Below, piece after piece: positions 15 through 15,798 of a stretch of DNA of 49,217 bases. Source of the stretch: Rickettsiales bacterium. Lineage in GTDB: Bacteria > Pseudomonadota > Alphaproteobacteria > Rickettsiales > UBA1997. The translations under genes and the position numbers were made by a program. Numbering within the stretch: position 1 is the first letter of the stretch; each line of letters opens with the position of its first letter. The stretch covers positions 1 to 49,217 of the forward strand of contig JANRKR010000006.1 of the NCBI GenBank assembly GCA_033763375.1, written 5' to 3'. The notes beneath the pieces were generated by a model. That model made no database searches. It saw only the letters and a list, made by a program, of their open reading frames with translations, and was not told where the DNA came from.

Positions 15-626
15 TTAAAATTTTGTTTGAATCTGATTTGCTATGTAGCGCGCCAGCAAGTCAATTTCGATATTTACCAAATCGCCAATTCTAGCCTTTT
101 TAAAAGAAGTATTATTGATGGTGTGATTGATTAAATAAACACTGAAAGAATTTTTAGTTATCTCATTCACAGTTAAAGAAGTGCCGTTGATCGTAACTGA
201 GCCTTTCTTGGCAATAAAAGACATTAATTTTTTTTCAGGCGCAAAAATAAATTTGAAAGATTCTTTAATTTTAGAAATTTTTGAAATTTTAGCGCAACCA
301 TCAACATGCCCTAAAACCATATGTCCGCCGAGTTCATCGCCAACCTTCAGCGAGAATTCCAGATTTATTAAATCGCCAATTTGCCAGTTTTTTAAGGTAG
401 TTTTATCCAGAGTTTCTTTTGATGCCTGAAAAAATAATAAAGTCGCGGAATTATGTTTTTGTTTCTTGATCAAAGTAAGACAAATGCCGTTGCAGGCAAT
501 AGAACAACCAATTTCTAGCTTACGATTAGAAATTTTATCAACTGCAATTGTTAGTAATAAATCTTTATTTTCACTTCTATTTAAAGCACGAACTTCGCCA
601 AGATTGGTGATTATGCCAGTAAACAT
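15..626 (-). CDS. ribE: riboflavin synthase (alpha chain)
   Basis: 203-aa ORF starting MFTGII.N.GEV. It has the internally duplicated lumazine-binding half-domains (second half ..GGHMVLGHVDG..). Its ATG overlaps the rpoH stop (TAATG at 624-628). Confidence 0.9.
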   Translation of the reverse strand: MFTGIITNLGEVRALNRSENKDLLLTIAVDKISNRKLEIGCSIACNGICLTLIKKQKHNSATLLFFQASKETLDKTTLKNWQIGDLINLEFSLKVGDELGGHMVLGHVDGCAKISKISKIKESFKFIFAPEKKLMSFIAKKGSVTINGTSLTVNEITKNSFSVYLINHTINNTSFKKARIGDLVNIEIDLLARYIANQIQTKF

Positions 627-1510
627 TAGGCGCTGGTTTTTTTAAGTTCTTTTCTGATTTTATTAATAGCATTTTCTTCAATTTGGCGAATGCGCTCACG
701 CGAAACCTGATAAATCTTGCTCAACTCTTCAAGAGTAAGTGGATTTTCAATCATTTGGCGTTTAAACAAAATATCTTTTTCACGCTCATTTAAAATTTCC
801 AGCGCATTTTTTAAGGCATTTTCTTGTCGGGATTTTTCCTGATTAGCAATTGCCAAATGTTCTTGATTATAATCATTTGAAGCTAATTCGTGAATTAGTT
901 CATCGTCATTTTCATCGCTGATAAAATTATTCAATGAAGAATCAGGTTGTTGTAGTCTGGAATCCATTTCAATGACATCTTTTTGTGAGACATTTAGATC
1001 TTGAGCAATTTTTTCAATATGTTCTAAAGGCAGACGATCATTGCTTGCAGAGCTACCAATAATTTTTTGTTTAATTTTGCGTAGGTTAAAAAAAAGTTTT
1101 TTTTGTGCCGCAGTTGTGCCTATTTTAACCAAAGACCAAGAGCGCAAAACATATTCTTGAATGCAGGCTCTGATCCACCACATAGCGTAAGTTGAAAAAC
1201 GAAAGCCTTTGGTTGGATCAAATTTTTTTACTGCTTGAATTAAACCGACATTTCCTTCAGCAACAATGTCGAACATTGGCAAACCATAATTTTTGAATTT
1301 ACGAGCAATTTTTACAACTAAACGTAAATGGCTTTGAACCAGCATTTTAGCAGCTTCTTTGTCACCGTTTTTTTGAAATCTGACACCATAATCATATTCT
1401 TCCTGCGCAGTTAGAATAGGAAATTTTTGAATTTCTCTAAGATATTGTAAAAAGCCAGCATCAGCAGATTTACCAATGGCTGTTGGATTTGTGATTAAAA
1501 AAGCTGTCAT
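626..1510 (-). CDS. rpoH: RNA polymerase sigma-32 (heat-shock sigma factor)
   Basis: 294 aa with sigma-70 regions 2-4 and the RpoH box TTAAQKKLFFNLRK. The stretch GFRFSTYAMWWIRACIQEYVLRSWSLVKIG matches alphaproteobacterial RpoH. Confidence 0.92.
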   Translation of the reverse strand: MTAFLITNPTAIGKSADAGFLQYLREIQKFPILTAQEEYDYGVRFQKNGDKEAAKMLVQSHLRLVVKIARKFKNYGLPMFDIVAEGNVGLIQAVKKFDPTKGFRFSTYAMWWIRACIQEYVLRSWSLVKIGTTAAQKKLFFNLRKIKQKIIGSSASNDRLPLEHIEKIAQDLNVSQKDVIEMDSRLQQPDSSLNNFISDENDDELIHELASNDYNQEHLAIANQEKSRQENALKNALEILNEREKDILFKRQMIENPLTLEELSKIYQVSRERIRQIEENAINKIRKELKKTSA

Positions 1511-1612
1511 TTTTTGAAATTTTTATTGGTTTAAAACACAGAAAAAAAGTTAATCGACAAAATTTGTGCAATTTAATTTATGTGTCGATCCACACTTTGT
1601 CAAGATAGCCAA

Positions 1613-2482
1613 TTAAAAACCTGATACTGGAATTTTATATTTATCGCTGAGATAAGAAAAAATATCTTTACGTTCTTTTGCTTGCAGTTGGCGGTTAAAA
1701 ATTATTACTTCGGCTATGAAGCCATTAAAACCATTACCGCCACTTTTATTGCTGCCGATGGTTAGTCCTGAAAGTGGATTGCTGCCGGCATCAATTGTGC
1801 TATTTCCGGCGGGGTTTGTGATATTATTGACATAAACTTTAGAAGATGATCCAAAAAAATGAGCAGCCATAATATAATTGCCATCAACTTGAAAGTTTGC
1901 CGGATTAGATGTTCCGGTGCTGACTGATGATCCGGCGTTAAGATTTACGGCTGAGGCGGAAATAGCAATTGCAGAAGTGTTGCTGGTTGAATAAGAATCA
2001 AGCAAAGTTGTGTTGATAGTTTTGGGTCTAAATACCAAAAAAATTGTGCTTTGGATAAAATCTCCCTGATAAAATTTAGATAAGACAATATTTGCTGAGC
2101 CGTTAAAATTAAGTGCGGGCAAATTATTAATAGCTTTGGCTTTGTAAGTAAGAGCGCTTGAAGCGGTGCGGTTGAGAGTATTTTTTTTTAATGTGATTGA
2201 AGCTGGGCTGATATCATACCAAGTGCTGATTTGTGCTGATTCAAAAGCTTCAGACGCTTTTAGACTATCAATTGCAGAAGTTTCATACCAGGCGACTAAA
2301 CCTTCAACTGAAGAAACTGTAGCTTTTGAGGTAATTGATCTGGCGTTGGCAATTCTTGAGTTATTGATCAGAGCTTTGCCCTGAATAGTGCCGCCAATTA
2401 AAATAGCGATTATAACTATAACAATTGATAGCTCGATTAAAGAAAATGCTTTTTTACAAAAACGACTTTGCGCTGTTTTCAT
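1613..2482 (-). CDS. prepilin-type N-terminal cleavage/methylation domain protein with C-terminal LamG-like (concanavalin-type) domain
   Basis: The N-terminus has a basic leader followed by A|FSLIELSIVIVIIAILIGG (Phe+1, Glu+5, hydrophobic helix). The C-terminus reads GFNGFIAEVIIFNRQLQAKERKDIF, the hallmark last strands of Laminin_G_3. By eye it is about 50% identical to the neighbouring ORF. Confidence 0.6.
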   Translation of the reverse strand: MKTAQSRFCKKAFSLIELSIVIVIIAILIGGTIQGKALINNSRIANARSITSKATVSSVEGLVAWYETSAIDSLKASEAFESAQISTWYDISPASITLKKNTLNRTASSALTYKAKAINNLPALNFNGSANIVLSKFYQGDFIQSTIFLVFRPKTINTTLLDSYSTSNTSAIAISASAVNLNAGSSVSTGTSNPANFQVDGNYIMAAHFFGSSSKVYVNNITNPAGNSTIDAGSNPLSGLTIGSNKSGGNGFNGFIAEVIIFNRQLQAKERKDIFSYLSDKYKIPVSGF

Positions 2483-2488
2483 AGCGTT

Positions 2489-3355
2489 TTAAATTCCGGT
2501 TACAGAAATTTTATATTTATAGGAAAGATATTTAAAAACATCGCGCCTTTCTTGAATTTGCAGGGCGCGATTATAAATAATAATTTCAGAAATTAATCCG
2601 TTATATGGATTTGTTGAGTTATATTGACTGCCAATGGTAAGTCCATTTAAAGAATTTGTTCCGGCATCAATTGTGGAATTACCCGCAGAAGTTGTGGCAT
2701 TATTTAGATAAGCTTTTGAAGATGAGCCGCTGAAATAAACCGCCATGATATAATTATTGTTAAGTGAAATATTGGCAGGATTAGAAGCTGTAGAAGTGCT
2801 GGCTGATATTCCGGCATTTAAAGTTATATTATTACTGTTTAAGGCAATTGAAGTTGAACTGGTTGAATTTGAGTCAGATATAGTAGCCAAAGTAACGCTG
2901 TTGGTTGGTCTAAAGACAATAAATATCGTGCTTTGAGTTAAGCTGCCTTGATAAAAACTGCTCAGATTAAAAGAAGCATTGGCTCCTGATATAAAACTTA
3001 CCGAAGGAATTTTATTAATACCGCTGATTTGATAAAGAACTTGAGCCGAGGCGCTACGAGTTAAGCTATTTCTTTTAGCAATTCTAGAGCTGGGAGAAAT
3101 GTCATACCAAGTGCTGATTTGTCCAGAATTATATGCCTCACTTTTGATAAAGCTGTCGTCGAGCGAGGCTTCATACCAAGCAGTTAAACCATTTATTGTT
3201 GGTACTACTGATTTTGCGGTGAAAGATCTGGCGCTGTTAATTCTGGCGGATTTAACTACTCCTGAACCGCTAATAACACCAGCAATCAGAATGCCGATTA
3301 TTAAAATAACAATTGCCAATTCAATTAGTGAAAAAGCGGAGTAGTTTTTTTTCAT
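2489..3355 (-). CDS. prepilin-type N-terminal domain protein with LamG-like domain (paralog of 1613..2482)
   Basis: N-terminus MKKNYSA|FSLIELAIVILIIGILIAG. C-terminus YNGLISEIIIYNRALQIQERRDVF. The start overlaps the gcvPB stop by 4 nt (ATGA at 3352-3355). Confidence 0.6.
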   Translation of the reverse strand: MKKNYSAFSLIELAIVILIIGILIAGVISGSGVVKSARINSARSFTAKSVVPTINGLTAWYEASLDDSFIKSEAYNSGQISTWYDISPSSRIAKRNSLTRSASAQVLYQISGINKIPSVSFISGANASFNLSSFYQGSLTQSTIFIVFRPTNSVTLATISDSNSTSSTSIALNSNNITLNAGISASTSTASNPANISLNNNYIMAVYFSGSSSKAYLNNATTSAGNSTIDAGTNSLNGLTIGSQYNSTNPYNGLISEIIIYNRALQIQERRDVFKYLSYKYKISVTGI

Positions 3356-4836
3356 TGATTTTGCATCCAGTTTATAATCGGAGTTTTAGCGGCTTTAACA
3401 TCGTCCAATCTTTTTCTTGGCGTAGAGATTGGATAATTATGAAATTTATCGCCGCGATTTTCTCTGATTTCTTCTGCGATGTAAATCATGGTGTCAATAA
3501 ATTGATCGATAGTTTCTTTGGTCTCAGTTTCAGTTGGTTCAATTAACATCGCGCCTTGAACTACAAGTGGAAAAAACACCGTCATTGGATGAATACCATA
3601 TTCAACCAAAGCCTTGGCAATATCAAGAGTGCTAATGCCTTGAGCTTTTTGTAATTTATCAGTTAGCAAGCATTCATGCATACAATTGCCTTCAAAAGGC
3701 ACGTGAAAATGATTTTTTAAGCGCGCTAAAATATAATTGGCGCTTAGAACTGAATCCTCAGCAACTTTTTGTAGACCATCAGCACCGTGTGAAAGCATGT
3801 AAGTCAAGGCACGAACGTGCATACCAAATTGTCCGTTAAAGCCTTTGACCTTGCCGCAAGTATCTTTAGGAGTTTCTAATTTATAAATATCGCCATCTTT
3901 TTTTACGTGCGGTGTTGGTAAAAATTCTGCTAATTCTTTGCGCACTGCAATTGGTCCAGAGCCAGGTCCACCGCCGCCATGTGGCGTTGAAAAAGTTTTA
4001 TGTAAATTAAAATGCATAACGTCAACACCAACATCAGCAGGACGAACTTTACCAACAATGGCATTATAATTGGCGCCATCGCAATAAAAATAAGCGCCAA
4101 CTCCATGAATTAAATCGGCAATTTCTTTGATATTTTTTTCAAATTTTCCGCAAGTATTTGGATTGGTAATCATGGTTGCAGCAATTGATTTGCCGTGCTC
4201 AGCGATTAGCTTTTTGAATAAATCCAAATCAATCAAACCTTCTTTATCAGAAGGAATAACTTTAATTTGAAAGCCACACATTGCTGCTGTTGCAGGATTT
4301 GTTCCATGTGCTGAGTCGGGAATTAAAACGATTTTTCTGGTTTGTGCTTCGCCATTTTTTTCATGAGCTTTTTTAATAACTAACATACCAGAAAACTCAC
4401 CTTGGGCGCCAGCTGCTGGAGCTAAAGAGACCGCGCCAAGTCCAGTTAAGGTTGCCAACCAATTTTGTAAATTAAACATTAATTCTAAAGCACCTTGAAC
4501 GGTTGATTGATCTTGCAGCGGATGAATATCAGCAAAGCCAGGTAAGCGAGCCATTTTTTCATTCAAACGCGGATTATGTTTCATGGTGCAAGAACCCAGA
4601 GGATAAAAGCCGGCATCAATTGAATAATTTTGATTAGAAAGACGCACGAAATGGCGAATAACTTGTGGTTCGTTGACTTGTGGCAAACCAATTTCTTGAC
4701 GATTATTTAAACCAGTACGCAAAGTGAAATTTTCAATTTCTGGCAAATCTACGCCACAAGCGCCTGTGCGCGATTGATTAATTAGAAGTTCAGTTTCGTG
4801 ACGCAGCCCGCCAATTTCTTTTGGAATAAATATCAT
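3352..4836 (-). CDS. gcvPB: glycine dehydrogenase (decarboxylating) subunit 2
   Basis: 494 aa with GSCTMKHNP and the PLP-lysine region NLHKTFSTPHGGGGPG. Length and N-terminus are typical of the split P-protein beta subunit. Confidence 0.9.
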   Translation of the reverse strand: MIFIPKEIGGLRHETELLINQSRTGACGVDLPEIENFTLRTGLNNRQEIGLPQVNEPQVIRHFVRLSNQNYSIDAGFYPLGSCTMKHNPRLNEKMARLPGFADIHPLQDQSTVQGALELMFNLQNWLATLTGLGAVSLAPAAGAQGEFSGMLVIKKAHEKNGEAQTRKIVLIPDSAHGTNPATAAMCGFQIKVIPSDKEGLIDLDLFKKLIAEHGKSIAATMITNPNTCGKFEKNIKEIADLIHGVGAYFYCDGANYNAIVGKVRPADVGVDVMHFNLHKTFSTPHGGGGPGSGPIAVRKELAEFLPTPHVKKDGDIYKLETPKDTCGKVKGFNGQFGMHVRALTYMLSHGADGLQKVAEDSVLSANYILARLKNHFHVPFEGNCMHECLLTDKLQKAQGISTLDIAKALVEYGIHPMTVFFPLVVQGAMLIEPTETETKETIDQFIDTMIYIAEEIRENRGDKFHNYPISTPRKRLDDVKAAKTPIINWMQNQ

Positions 4837-4855: not shown

Positions 4856-4957
4856 TTATTTTAGATTCTTATTTTGTTCGGCATGAAAATGTGGTGGATT
4901 ATGTTCGTCATATTACATTGAAATAACAATTCCAAGAAAGCGGCTGATTTCGGGCAT
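4856..4957 (-). pseudogene. relic of a DUF4160-family gene (N-terminal ~26 codons, in-frame TAA)
   Basis: The minus-strand frame reads MPEISRFLGIVISM*YDEHNPPHFHAEQNKNLK*. This matches the conserved DUF4160 N-terminus (MP.ISRF.GI.I.MYY.DHNPPHFHA) with a TAA (4913-4915) replacing one Tyr codon of the conserved MYY. The body of the gene is missing. Confidence 0.5.
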
Positions 4958-4984
4958 GGTGGTGATTTGATTGGTAGCTTGATT

Positions 4985-5014
4985 GGCTTTGTTTTTATCG
5001 GCTTTGTTTTTATG
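4985..5014. repeat. 15-bp tandem direct repeat x2 (ggctttgtttttatc / ggctttgtttttatg)
   Basis: Read directly from the gcvPA-gcvPB spacer. The two units differ only at the last base. Confidence 0.8.
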
Positions 5015-5025
5015 GGTGTTTGCCA

Positions 5026-6303
5026 TTAATTCAAAATTTTTTCAAGTTCGCTGGCAAAATTTTCCATATCTTGCGCGCTGGTTAATTCGCTAACTGCAAT
5101 AATCATTTTATTTTTAAGCGCAAAACCGCCGATAATATTTTTGGCTAGCAATTTTTTATTTACCAAAGTGGCGTCTTGATCAAATTCAATTGTAAATTCA
5201 TTAAAGAAATTTTTGTTTAAAATTTTTAAAGCTGGAATTTTTGCCAAGCGATCAGCCAATTCGCAGGCTTTTTTATGGTTGATTAAAGCTAGTTTTTTGA
5301 AACCGATTTCACCAAGTAAAGAAGCGTGAATCGTAAAAGCAGTAGCGCACAAACCTTGATTTGAACAGATGTTAGAAGTGGCTTTTTCGCGGCGAATATG
5401 TTGTTCGCGGGCGTTAAGAGTTAAAACATAACCAGCTTTGCCGTCAGCATCAACGGTTGCGCCACAGATTCTTCCTGGTAATTGACGCATAAATTCTTTG
5501 CGACAAGCAAAAAATCCTAAAAGTGGACCGCCGAAATTTAAACCAACGCCAAGACTAGAAGCTTCGCCAACCACGATATCAGCTTGTTTTGGTGGTTGTA
5601 AAAGTCCTAAAGCTAAAATTTCATTATTAATTACAATCATCAAAGCGCCAGCAGCATCGCATTTTTTTCGCACTTCATCAAGATCAGGAATTTCGCCAAA
5701 AAAATCAGGATATTGCACAATCATTGCTGCGCAGCTTTCATCAACATTTTCCAATAATTTGGCGTTATTTAAGTTTAGTGAAGTTTTGGTAACTTCCAAA
5801 TAATCGGGATGAATATTGCCAAAAGTTGCAATATTTTTACGATCGGATTTTATGCGCAGCGCCATTAAGCAGCTTTCAGCCGTAGCCGTTGCGCCGTCAT
5901 ACATTGAGGCGTTAGCAACTTCCATACCAGTTAAAAGAGCGATGATACTTTGAAATTGAAAAATTACTGCCAAGGTTCCTTGCGAAATTTCTGGCTGATA
6001 AGGTGTATAAGAAGTTAAAAATTCTGAACGTTGAATTAAATGATCAACAGTTGCCGGAATATGATGTTTGTAGCAACCAGCGCCCAAAAAAAATGCGCCA
6101 GCTGAAGCGGGACGATTTTTTGCAGCGTAAGATTTTAAAATATTTTCAACTTCAATTTCACCTAAATGATTTGGCAAATTGGCGATTGGTTTTTTAAGCA
6201 AAGATTCTACATCAACAGCATCGTAAAGTTGGTCAATATCAGAAACGCCAATAGTTTTTAACATTTCTTGGCGATCGTTTTCAGTCAAGGCTAGATAACG
6301 CAT
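5026..6303 (-). CDS. gcvPA: glycine dehydrogenase (decarboxylating) subunit 1
   Basis: 425 aa starting MRYLALTENDRQEML, with FLGAGCYKHHIPA and TSYTPYQPEISQGTL motifs. Confidence 0.9.
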   Translation of the reverse strand: MRYLALTENDRQEMLKTIGVSDIDQLYDAVDVESLLKKPIANLPNHLGEIEVENILKSYAAKNRPASAGAFFLGAGCYKHHIPATVDHLIQRSEFLTSYTPYQPEISQGTLAVIFQFQSIIALLTGMEVANASMYDGATATAESCLMALRIKSDRKNIATFGNIHPDYLEVTKTSLNLNNAKLLENVDESCAAMIVQYPDFFGEIPDLDEVRKKCDAAGALMIVINNEILALGLLQPPKQADIVVGEASSLGVGLNFGGPLLGFFACRKEFMRQLPGRICGATVDADGKAGYVLTLNAREQHIRREKATSNICSNQGLCATAFTIHASLLGEIGFKKLALINHKKACELADRLAKIPALKILNKNFFNEFTIEFDQDATLVNKKLLAKNIIGGFALKNKMIIAVSELTSAQDMENFASELEKILN

Positions 6304-13818: not shown

Positions 13819-14865
13819 ATGTCTAAAACAGAACTTCCAACTTTTACCATCAAACAGCTGCTTGAAGCAGGCGTACACTTTGGCCATAAAACTATGCGCC
13901 GAAATCCAAAAATGACCAAATATATTTACACCAACAGTAACGGCGTAAGCATAATTGATCTTAACAAAACTGCTACTTTGCTGCACAAAGCTTTAATTAC
14001 CGTTAAAGATATCGCTAAAAATAATGGCAGAATTTTATTTGTGGCTACTAAAAAACAAGGCGCTGAACCAGTTGCCGAAGCTGCTAAAAGATGTGGTCAA
14101 TATTATGTTAATTTCAGATGGTTGGGTGGCATGTTGACTAATTGGAAAACTGTTTCGCAATCGATTAAAACTTTGAAAAAAATTGATGAGCAACTCGCCA
14201 GTGAAGAAATTGACTTTAAGAAAAAAGAAAAATTAGTTTTGCAAAGACAAAAACTTAAACTTGAACAAGCGCTTGGCGGAATCAAAAATATGGGCGGTTA
14301 TCCTGATCTTGTTTTTATCATTGATACTCACAAAGAAGCGCTGGCTATTGCTGAAGCTAAAAAACTTGGCGTGCCAATCATGGCAATTCTTGATTCTAAT
14401 TGTAATCCGGATGGCATTGCTTTTCCAATTCCTGGAAATGATGATTCTGCTAAAGCAATTAAACTTTATTGTCGTTTAATTTCTGATGCTGCAATTGCCG
14501 GCGTTAAAGAGAATATGGCAATTTCTGGCGTTGATATCAGTAAATTTGAAAGCGATGAAGAAATTTCTAACTATAAAAATTCTCTCGCTGAAAAAACCGA
14601 GAAAAAACCTGCTGAAAAAGACGCTAAAGATTTCAAAGGCAAAAAGGATTTTAAAGGTAAAAAAGATTCCAAACATGCTAAAACAGAAGTGAAACACGAA
14701 AAGCATGATAAAAAATCTGATAAACACCAAGCTCATAAAACCGATCATGATAAAAAGCATCAAACTCATGACAAGAGTGAAAAATCTGATCGTGATACAA
14801 AAAAAGAAGATAAAAAACCGGCAGCAAAAAAACCAGCAGCTAAGAAACCAGCAGCAAAAAAATAA
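13819..14865 (+). CDS. rpsB: 30S ribosomal protein S2 with ~90-aa Lys/His-rich C-terminal extension
   Basis: The N-terminal ~255 aa is canonical S2 (LLEAGVHFGH.., NFRWLGGMLTNW). The tail contains DFKGKK x2 and KKPAA x3. Confidence 0.92.
   Translation: MSKTELPTFTIKQLLEAGVHFGHKTMRRNPKMTKYIYTNSNGVSIIDLNKTATLLHKALITVKDIAKNNGRILFVATKKQGAEPVAEAAKRCGQYYVNFRWLGGMLTNWKTVSQSIKTLKKIDEQLASEEIDFKKKEKLVLQRQKLKLEQALGGIKNMGGYPDLVFIIDTHKEALAIAEAKKLGVPIMAILDSNCNPDGIAFPIPGNDDSAKAIKLYCRLISDAAIAGVKENMAISGVDISKFESDEEISNYKNSLAEKTEKKPAEKDAKDFKGKKDFKGKKDSKHAKTEVKHEKHDKKSDKHQAHKTDHDKKHQTHDKSEKSDRDTKKEDKKPAAKKPAAKKPAAKK
14812..14856 (+). repeat. 15-bp in-frame tandem repeat x3 encoding KKPAA at the rpsB 3' end
   Basis: aaaaaaccggcagca / aaaaaaccagcagct / aagaaaccagcagca, read directly. 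Confidence 0.85.
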
Positions 14866-14886
14866 CTTAAAAATTTAGTAAATATT

Positions 14887-15798
14887 ATGGCAGATTTATC
14901 TCTTATTAAAAAACTTCGTGAAGCCACAGGTTGTGGAATTTCCGATTGCAACAAAGCTTTGGCTGAAAATGGTGATGATTTTGAAAAATCAGTTGATTGG
15001 TTGCGCAAAAAAGGTCTTTCGGCAGCAGTTAAAAAAAGTGGCAGAATTACTTCGGAAGGTGCGGTTGCAGTTATAGTTGAAAATAACAACGCTGCAATTG
15101 TTGAAGTTAATTCTGAAACTGATTTCGTTGCCAGAAATCAAAAATTCCAAGACTTCGTTTTGGCGCTTTCTAAGCTTGCAATTGGCTGCGGCGAAGATGT
15201 TGAAAAGCTTAAAAACAAAAATTTCAATTCAAATCATTTGGTTGATACTGAGTTAAAAAATCAAATCAGCGTTATTGGCGAAAATATTAATATTCGTCGT
15301 ATTGCTAATTTATCAGTCAATAAAGGTGAAATTGTAAGCTATATTCACAACGCAACCGCACCAAATATGGGTAAAATTGCTGTTTTGGTGGCTTTTGAGT
15401 CTGAATCAGAAAAATCAAAATTAACAGAATTTGGCAAACAAATCGCGATGCATATTGCAGCGGCAAAACCTGACGCGTTAAATATTCAATCAGTGGCGCC
15501 AGAAAAATTAAAAAGAGAAGTTGAAGTTTTAAAAGAACAAGCGCGCGCATCGGGCAAGCCAGAAAATATTATTGATAAAATGATTGAAGGCAGAATTAGA
15601 AAATACTACGAAGAAGTGGTTCTTTTGGAGCAGCCTTTTGTGATGGATGACAAAATAAAAATTAAAGATTTGCTTGCCAAATTCAGCAAAGAAAATGGCG
15701 AAACTAAAATTTCAGCTTTCAAACTTTTTATTCTTGGAGAAGGAATTGAAAAGAAGGAAAATGATTTTGCTGCTGAAGTTGCTTCAATGACTAGTTAA
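14887..15798 (+). CDS. tsf: translation elongation factor Ts
   Basis: 303 aa starting [20 protein letters not shown] (UBA-like N-terminal domain). It follows rpsB as in the conserved operon. Confidence 0.92.

Follow-up and report, generated by a model that had tools for sequence, protein, structure and literature searches.

Lectin-type pilins and the locus under study

Modular pilins that combine an N_methyl motif (IPR012902) with a Laminin_G_3 domain (PF13385) are widespread in diderm and monoderm bacteria and are predicted to carry a carbohydrate-binding module on a type IV filament (Raynaud et al. 2021, PMC8179133). PilC of Streptococcus sanguinis is a lectin pilin that binds glycans and has been placed by modelling at the tip of the pilus (Shahin et al. 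2023, PMC9934059; PDB 7OA7). Basal and DDG-clade Rickettsiales are also described as having type IV pili, with host-cell attachment as the proposed role (PMC9352585, PMC10847448); how such bacteria first attach to eukaryotic cells is still an open matter (PMC10847448). Here we describe two tandem genes, pA and pB, in a stretch of 49,217 nucleotides from a Rickettsiales bacterium (GenBank assembly GCA_033763375.1, contig JANRKR010000006.1, positions 1 to 49,217), hereafter the window. It is contig C6 of a 1.51-Mb assembly in 128 contigs, with completeness estimated at 97%. Each protein carries a class III signal, and its alpha-1 helix leads straight into a lectin-type head. They are probably modular type IV pilins, processed by PilD as subunits of a retractile pilus.

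The architecture and its likely function have already been described, since lectin-type modular pilins are published and one is characterised. The combination of N_methyl and PF13385, which had been taken as unusual in this context in an earlier note on this DNA, is in fact one of the 15 commonest architectures of modular pilins (PMC8179133). It is shared by pB, but the published proteins have a complete pilin module and a short loop, while in the pB model the jelly roll follows the helix directly, without a recognisable linker. In addition, the present genome has 11 copies in 1.5 Mb (2-17 in relatives), with Ala replacing Gly at position -1. PilC of S. sanguinis resembles our proteins in its class III signal with Glu5 and its lectin-fold module. 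However, it is a 52.8-kDa protein with a short pilin moiety and immunoglobulin-like and lectin modules, whereas ours are of about 30 kDa and have helix and lectin only. Furthermore, PilC is encoded by a single-copy gene in a 22-kb pil locus of a monoderm, in contrast to the dispersed genes of this diderm, and is 14% identical to pB. Other structural relatives of the head, such as the tailspike of cyanopodophage Pan3 (9VYH), AbnA domain 4 (5HON) and the lectin domain of the Trypanosoma cruzi trans-sialidase (1MS9), are parts of virions or enzymes and have no prepilin signal; identity to the solved structures is 12-18%. In the same order and in other bacteria, giant surface proteins with many LamG domains repeat the whole head (profile positions ~55-294, C-terminal helix motif included) 4-23 times in 1,200-7,000 residues. 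They have no pilin helix and are presumably exported by other routes. What distinguishes the present family is the direct joining of jelly roll and helix, the invariant Ala at -1, the multiplication to 7-17 copies per genome at genome sizes of 1.2-1.8 Mb, the genes being dispersed behind housekeeping genes, and the resemblance of the head to phage receptor-binding domains and giant-adhesin repeats.

Prepilin signal and alpha-1 helix

Both proteins show the N-terminal features of type IV pilins: a basic leader, a cleavage site and about 20 hydrophobic residues. The leader MKKNYSA of pB is followed by FSLIELAIVILIIGILIAG and the leader MKTAQSRFCKKA of pA by FSLIELSIVIVIIAILIGG; the site, A-FSLIE, has Glu at +5 in both. 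PF07963 (N_methyl, cut-off 21.2 bits) matched pB with 26.1 and pA with 25.3 bits. The prepilin model TIGR02532 gave 24.7 bits for pA and 16.0 bits for pB in hmmscan (cut-off 16.3), and 28.0 and 19.6 bits for the pair in a genome-wide scan. Residue E12 of pB, which is Glu5 of the mature protein, is invariant in 53 homologous sequences. Glu5 of type IV pilins has a role in assembly rather than in cleavage. The first ~25 mature residues are almost identical in an alignment of all 14 prepilins of the source genome, as is expected for subunits with one shared filament core. In a sequence-profile search of the PDB, only the N-terminal helix matched solved pilins (Geopilin, PilA and MshA), and the head gave a single marginal match (4qvs, E 0.005).

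The lectin-type head

Against PF13385 (Laminin_G_3, cut-off 27.6 bits) pB scored 37.9 bits and pA, at 26.9 bits, fell slightly below, but the whole length of pA aligns with pB at 53% identity. The motifs STIF(I/L)VFRP, NYIMA..F.GSSSK.Y.NN and G.I.E(I/V)II(Y/F)NR.L....ER were all found in the pair. An AlphaFold2 model of pB, built from the alignment of 53 homologues, has a mean predicted local distance difference test score (pLDDT) of 90.9 and a predicted template modelling score of 0.88. It consists of a helix (residues 10-47), a beta sandwich, and a terminal conserved strand with a helix at 267-281. Foldseek with this model retrieved 289 PDB chains at E<=0.001, and the top 50 listed are all lectin-type jelly rolls. 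They include the trans-sialidase lectin domain, AbnA domain 4, a cyanophage tailspike and the N-terminal halves of clostridial neurotoxin binding domains. The lectin pilin PilC (7oa7) stands at rank 34 (E 4e-7, template modelling (TM) score 0.49 by query). On the strength of the fold model and the Foldseek matches, residues 43-282 of pB are predicted to form one concanavalin A (ConA)-like domain.

The earlier note had read the class III signal, the LamG jelly roll and the motifs from the letters alone, with about 50% identity between the two genes, and each of these points was borne out; in BLASTP, 281 residues of the pair align with 53% identity (E 7e-88). The checks that it proposed gave significant N_methyl and Laminin_G_3 matches, a jelly-roll head in the predicted structure and, in a scan of the genome, genes for PilD, PilB, PilC, PilT and a secretin.

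A family of 14 prepilins

Beyond the view of a note made on the window alone, the pair belongs to an 11-member LamG family. Exactly 14 prepilins, all of 274-320 residues, were detected in the source genome, by motif scan and by TIGR02532 alike; their genes make up ~0.8% of the 1.5-Mb genome. The LamG type accounts for eleven of them, which have in common the C-terminal motif G.I.E.II(F/Y).R.L....ER...YL..K(W/Y). The others are two tandem genes on contig C15 and one on C119. Among the LamG paralogues, residues 8-30 and 251-281 are conserved, while 130-250 are hypervariable and hold most of the indels. This pattern is no more than suggestive of a ligand-binding region on the variable face. Other paralogues lie 11-19 bp behind a FixG-like gene, a Cys/Met pyridoxal phosphate enzyme gene and pilB.

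The tandem prepilins of C15 have a 54-residue alpha-1, an invariant C-terminal Cys pair and closest orthologues with 74-79% identity, and for these reasons are the best candidates for a filament-forming pilin, a role that we offer as a lead. A model of a C15 pilin (pLDDT 89) gave weak Foldseek matches to PilA1 and CofA (best E 0.016). The two genes are located at C15:13817-14686 (289 residues) and 14728-15552 (274 residues), equivalent to L009:4018-4887 and 4929-5753, 143 bp downstream of greA. The fourteenth prepilin (C119:16276-17238, L016:4077-5039) has 320 residues, a TTG start and six Cys, lacks the LamG tail, and shows a weak GspG-like stretch past the helix.

Pilus machinery

As the earlier note had observed for the neighbourhood of the pair, no pilus machinery genes were found on the window contig; all matches are on contigs C8, C43, C50, C56 and C63. 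The type IVa set PilB, PilC, PilD, PilQ and PilT is present, PilT alone scoring over its equivalog/subfamily cut-off and the rest over Pfam domain cut-offs. An open reading frame (ORF) at C43:11887-12696 carries A24_N_bact (89.7 bits) together with Peptidase_A24 (51.1 bits), and is thus predicted to encode a bifunctional PilD. The PilB/GspE-like ATPase has 594 residues and an MshEN domain, and scores 505 bits against PilB vs 495 against GspE. The PilT-family ATPase reaches 446 bits (cut-off 319). The PilC/GspF platform protein scores best against GspF, and the secretin against MshL, the secretin of the MSHA pilus. The genes pilB, pilC, pilD and pilT and the secretin gene each lie alone on a separate contig amid housekeeping genes.

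Machinery of this type had been thought unusual for such bacteria, which the published reports on basal and DDG-clade Rickettsiales and our own survey contradict: in 121 genomes of the same order as the window, PilT was over cut-off in 83. The source genome also has a VirB11 of rickettsial type. A search for TLC, the ATP/ADP translocase that marks parasitism, gave no match in it, and the control genomes were equally without a match.

Proposed function and alternatives

Glu5 and the helix are invariant, the genome encodes PilD, PilB, PilC, PilT and a secretin, and there is published precedent; from these three lines we infer the following steps between gene and filament. The hydrophobic helix would insert the proteins in the inner membrane, where PilD would cut the 7- or 12-residue leader after Ala and methylate Phe1. 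The PilB-like ATPase, the PilC platform and the secretin would then extrude the subunits as a pilus, which PilT could retract. The LamG pilins would most probably be low-abundance or tip subunits beside a conventional pilin, for which the C15 proteins are candidates, and the exposed head may bind a glycan or another surface ligand. Most of the variation among the 11 paralogues falls in the central part of the head, so that they may offer a range of binding specificities with which to attach to host cells, prey cells or particles.

Several observations weigh against this interpretation. The pB model has no separate pilin beta-sheet module between helix and jelly roll, its alpha-1 is not packed on a 4-5-stranded antiparallel sheet as in the classic pilin head, and its packing in a filament is hypothetical. 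Ligand-binding residues were not identified in the head. Position -1, canonically Gly, is occupied by Ala in every one of the 14 prepilins and in at least 90% of the 53 homologues. Ala is the one substitution at this position that prepilin peptidases are known to tolerate. The ATPase, platform and secretin are below the equivalog cut-offs for both the type IV pilus and the type II secretion system (T2SS). PilN, PilO and GspL (T2SSL) had no matches in this nearly complete genome, and PilM_2 gave weak matches only, in frames of 411 and 348 residues that were taken as FtsA and MreB by length alone. The alignment subcomplex PilM/N/O was therefore not found (PilP was not searched), and the assembly machine looks minimal or built with divergent parts. 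Finally, only one paralogue adjoins a machinery gene (19 bp after pilB), and in none of 11 related genomes was a prepilin found within 1.5 kb of pilB. Conserved linkage of pilins and machinery was not used as evidence, since the pilB adjacency is missing in all 11.

The most serious rival, given the failure to find PilM/N/O and the lack of a pilin sheet in the model, is that the signal serves only for export and anchoring. Once cleaved by PilD, the proteins would then be tethered lectins in the inner membrane or periplasm, or a short stub, acting in substrate capture or in the envelope, and would not enter long pili. The missing GspL, the scattering of the genes behind housekeeping genes instead of in pilus operons, a copy number very high for minor pilins, and the recurrence of the same head as a repeat in giant non-pilin surface proteins all agree with this, but the invariance of Glu5 and of the N-terminal half of alpha-1 in all paralogues and in the 53 homologues does not. 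Likewise, PilT and the secretin have been kept, implying a surface filament that is extended and retracted, and conventional-looking pilins with the same N-terminus exist for its body. An anchored family might have analogues in the 'bindosome' of archaea, whose sugar-binding proteins bear prepilin-like signals, and in the large families of prepilin-like proteins known from Planctomycetes. On balance we consider anchoring unlikely.

It is quite improbable that the proteins are pseudopilins or cargo adaptors of a T2SS-like machine, with LamG heads that recognise cargo or cap a pseudopilus. The nearly equal scores of the ATPase for GspE and PilB and the best match of the platform to GspF would fit such a machine, and a homologous apparatus was called T2SS in the Deianiraea paper (10.1101/479196), but the PilT-family retraction ATPase is over its cut-off, the secretin is closest to MshL and GspL was not found. 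The pair does share with the pseudopilins GspG and GspH an N-terminal helix and the predicted dependence on a prepilin peptidase; however, the GspH/GspG matches, at 13-17 bits, are well under the cut-offs of 80-89 and cover only this common helix. A set of 11 lectin-headed paralogues with hypervariable heads is also unlike the GspH-K set.

A more ambitious version of the preferred reading, that of modular subunits in a retractile type IV pilus, is a 'multi-lectin' pilus in which 7-17 helix-plus-LamG subunits with hypervariable ligand faces, whose nearest structural relatives are phage receptor-binding proteins, are swapped into one filament or even form its body. With genes behind different housekeeping operons, the mix of subunits would track the physiological state of the cell, and the pilus would catch host or prey cells or polysaccharide particles. 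We put this forward as a speculation of low probability. Similarly doubtful is its corollary that the direct union of helix and jelly roll would define a structural class of pilin in its own right and more than a minor variant.

If the preferred reading holds, 14 pilin genes (11 of them lectin-headed) in 1.5 Mb mark surface attachment by a type IV pilus as central to the lifestyle of this bacterium. The family would provide candidates for the proteins with which an uncultured freshwater relative of obligate symbionts recognises hosts or particles, and a compact natural series of helix-plus-lectin pilins for the study of bulky modules on type IV filaments. The principle is unchanged, and the distinguishing points of the family would not surprise a pilus specialist, though they make it a reasonable target for attachment work in uncultured freshwater relatives of Rickettsiales.

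Gene order and the gcvPB junction

The features of the locus are given in Table 1. The coordinates, the minus strand and the 6-bp spacing of the pair (2483-2488) agree with the earlier note, as does the start of pB within the gcvPB stop.

Table 1. Features of the pilin locus, numbered from the first letter of the window
Feature	Position	Strand	Description and basis
pB, LamG-headed prepilin gene	2489..3355	minus	288 aa; ORF, N_methyl, Laminin_G_3 and AlphaFold2 model
pB leader MKKNYSA, aa 1-7	3335..3355	minus	Sequence; A-FSLIE register from alignment of 14 prepilins; predicted cleavage after Ala7
pB alpha-1 helix, aa 8-47	3215..3334	minus	Glu5 = E12, hydrophobic N-terminal half invariant; DSSP helix 10-47
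pB head, aa 48-288, single ConA-like/LamG jelly roll (predicted), conserved strand and helix at end (251-281)	2492..3214	minus	
pA, LamG-headed prepilin gene, tandem paralogue of pB	1613..2482	minus	289 aa; ORF, 53% identity to pB
pA leader MKTAQSRFCKKA, aa 1-12	2447..2482	minus	Sequence; register from alignment of 14 prepilins
ATGA overlap, gcvPB stop and pB start	3352..3355	minus	Read as caATGAaa; sequence caATGAaaaaaaac
gcvPB, glycine dehydrogenase subunit 2, conserved upstream neighbour	3352..4836	minus	GcvP2_C, GDC-P
gcvPA, first gene of conserved block	5026..6303	minus	ORF; GDC-P in orthologous loci; synteny
rpoH-like sigma factor gene, conserved downstream neighbour, 102-bp spacer	626..1510	minus	Sigma70_r2/r4/r1_2; synteny
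Promoter-like TTGACA-17-TAAATT in pA-rpoH spacer	1575..1603	minus	Consensus scan, 10/12 matches

The order gcvPA-gcvPB-LamG pilin (one or two copies)-rpoH-ribE recurs in 25-38 loci fetched from related metagenome-assembled genomes (MAGs), a selected set, as the loci were fetched as pilin homology matches. In them gcvPB is 72-90% identical and the pilins 36-62%. Of the 25 loci in which the gap between the gcvPB stop and the pilin could be measured, 16 have one of at most 55 bp and six a negative one; six gaps over 800 bp are partly (L020, L023) an artefact, as the leader pattern missed the pilin that comes first. The window pair was placed, in a tree of 101 family members, inside a 33-row gcvPB-linked clade (Shimodaira-Hasegawa-like approximate likelihood ratio test (SH-aLRT) 97). 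The other nine LamG paralogues fall outside it, several with orthologues of their own elsewhere. The recurrent gene order and the supported clade indicate that the linkage is old and stable. Strict orthology of pA and pB with partners in other genomes was considered and not adopted. The SH-aLRT values of 91-92 are below the starred level and the identities are ambiguous (with the two genes of L018, for example, pA shares 57% for the first and 50% for the second), so that one gcvPB-linked clade is all that is claimed.

The ATGA overlap had been regarded as a coupling worth attention. With gaps taken from a simple ORF caller, exactly 4 bp are shared by 8.6% of same-strand neighbour pairs of the source genome and 48% of pairs are at most 10 bp apart; the overlap is thus ordinary in a compact genome, and nothing in these data points to a functional tie with glycine catabolism. 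The coding start of pB reads ATG AAA AAA AAC, with a run of eight A (3343-3351, minus) just past the overlap, which is commonplace in an AT-rich genome. Promoter-like and terminator-like sites are no commoner in the region than in shuffled sequence, and in the scan neither a terminator nor a promoter of convincing quality stood out between gcvPB and the pilins, which are probably read through from the gcvP genes. The site at 1575-1603 suggests that rpoH may have its own start. No Rfam family, glycine riboswitch included, reached its gathering score anywhere in the window.

A functional coupling to glycine catabolism, for example glycine-dependent regulation of a gcvP-pilin transcript, is very improbable: the overlap, the recurrent order and the lack of a convincing terminator or promoter would permit it, but such overlaps are frequent, other paralogues lie 11-19 bp behind unrelated genes, the junction varies from -19 to +150 bp in the 19 loci where the leader scan caught the first pilin, and no glycine riboswitch was detected in the window. 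We read the gene order as operon hitch-hiking in a compact genome and not as a metabolic link.

Distribution in relatives, metagenomes and viruses

A search of metagenomes gave 290 homologues at E<=0.001, so the pattern is not due to chance. They appear to come from freshwater MAGs labelled Rickettsiales or Alphaproteobacteria, and are named, where a name is given, prepilin-type N-terminal cleavage/methylation domain-containing, LamG domain-containing, pseudopilin PulG, large repetitive protein or hypothetical. In the 121-genome sample, full-length pilin-LamG genes are concentrated in the family of the window (9-20 matches per genome at E<=1e-10). One other family has single copies, and elsewhere the head alone is repeated in giant proteins of up to 3,877 residues. 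Among 20 further genomes of the window's family, 11 have 2-17 full-length copies (E<=1e-30), whereas no copy was detected in the smallest family genomes (0.7-1.2 Mb). Searched with a profile, a set of 1.84 billion representatives yielded 108,001 proteins at E<=0.001, the top ones being those of 1,200-7,000 residues with 4-23 copies of the head each.

Relatives of the head were also found in viruses. On viral contigs of IMG/VR (L102-L181), giant-virus MAGs included, 122 stretches encode sequences with 24-35% identity over residues ~45-285, and one of them (L103) matches from residue 6. Proteins of ~240 residues from Uroviricota match the head at a TM score of ~0.7.

Extended members of the family occur in congeners. 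One protein of 657 residues has a prepilin signal, a LamG head, a Cys-rich linker and a Gly_rich_2 domain, and a second extended member has 1066 residues; the extended loci are L182:1005-2978 (G022:C8) and L183:1323-4523 (G079:C1). In the relative G022, five matches lie within open frames of 641-713 residues. Truncated or stop-containing copies stand beside intact ones (G098:C3:52270-54651, G022:C19:11484-11987 and G121:C20:10155-10730), which suggests gene birth and death. Four family members are located on a 44-kb and probably mis-binned contig, JBLHVR010000007.1 (L062, L083), of a MAG labelled Lentimonas sp. (Verrucomicrobiota).

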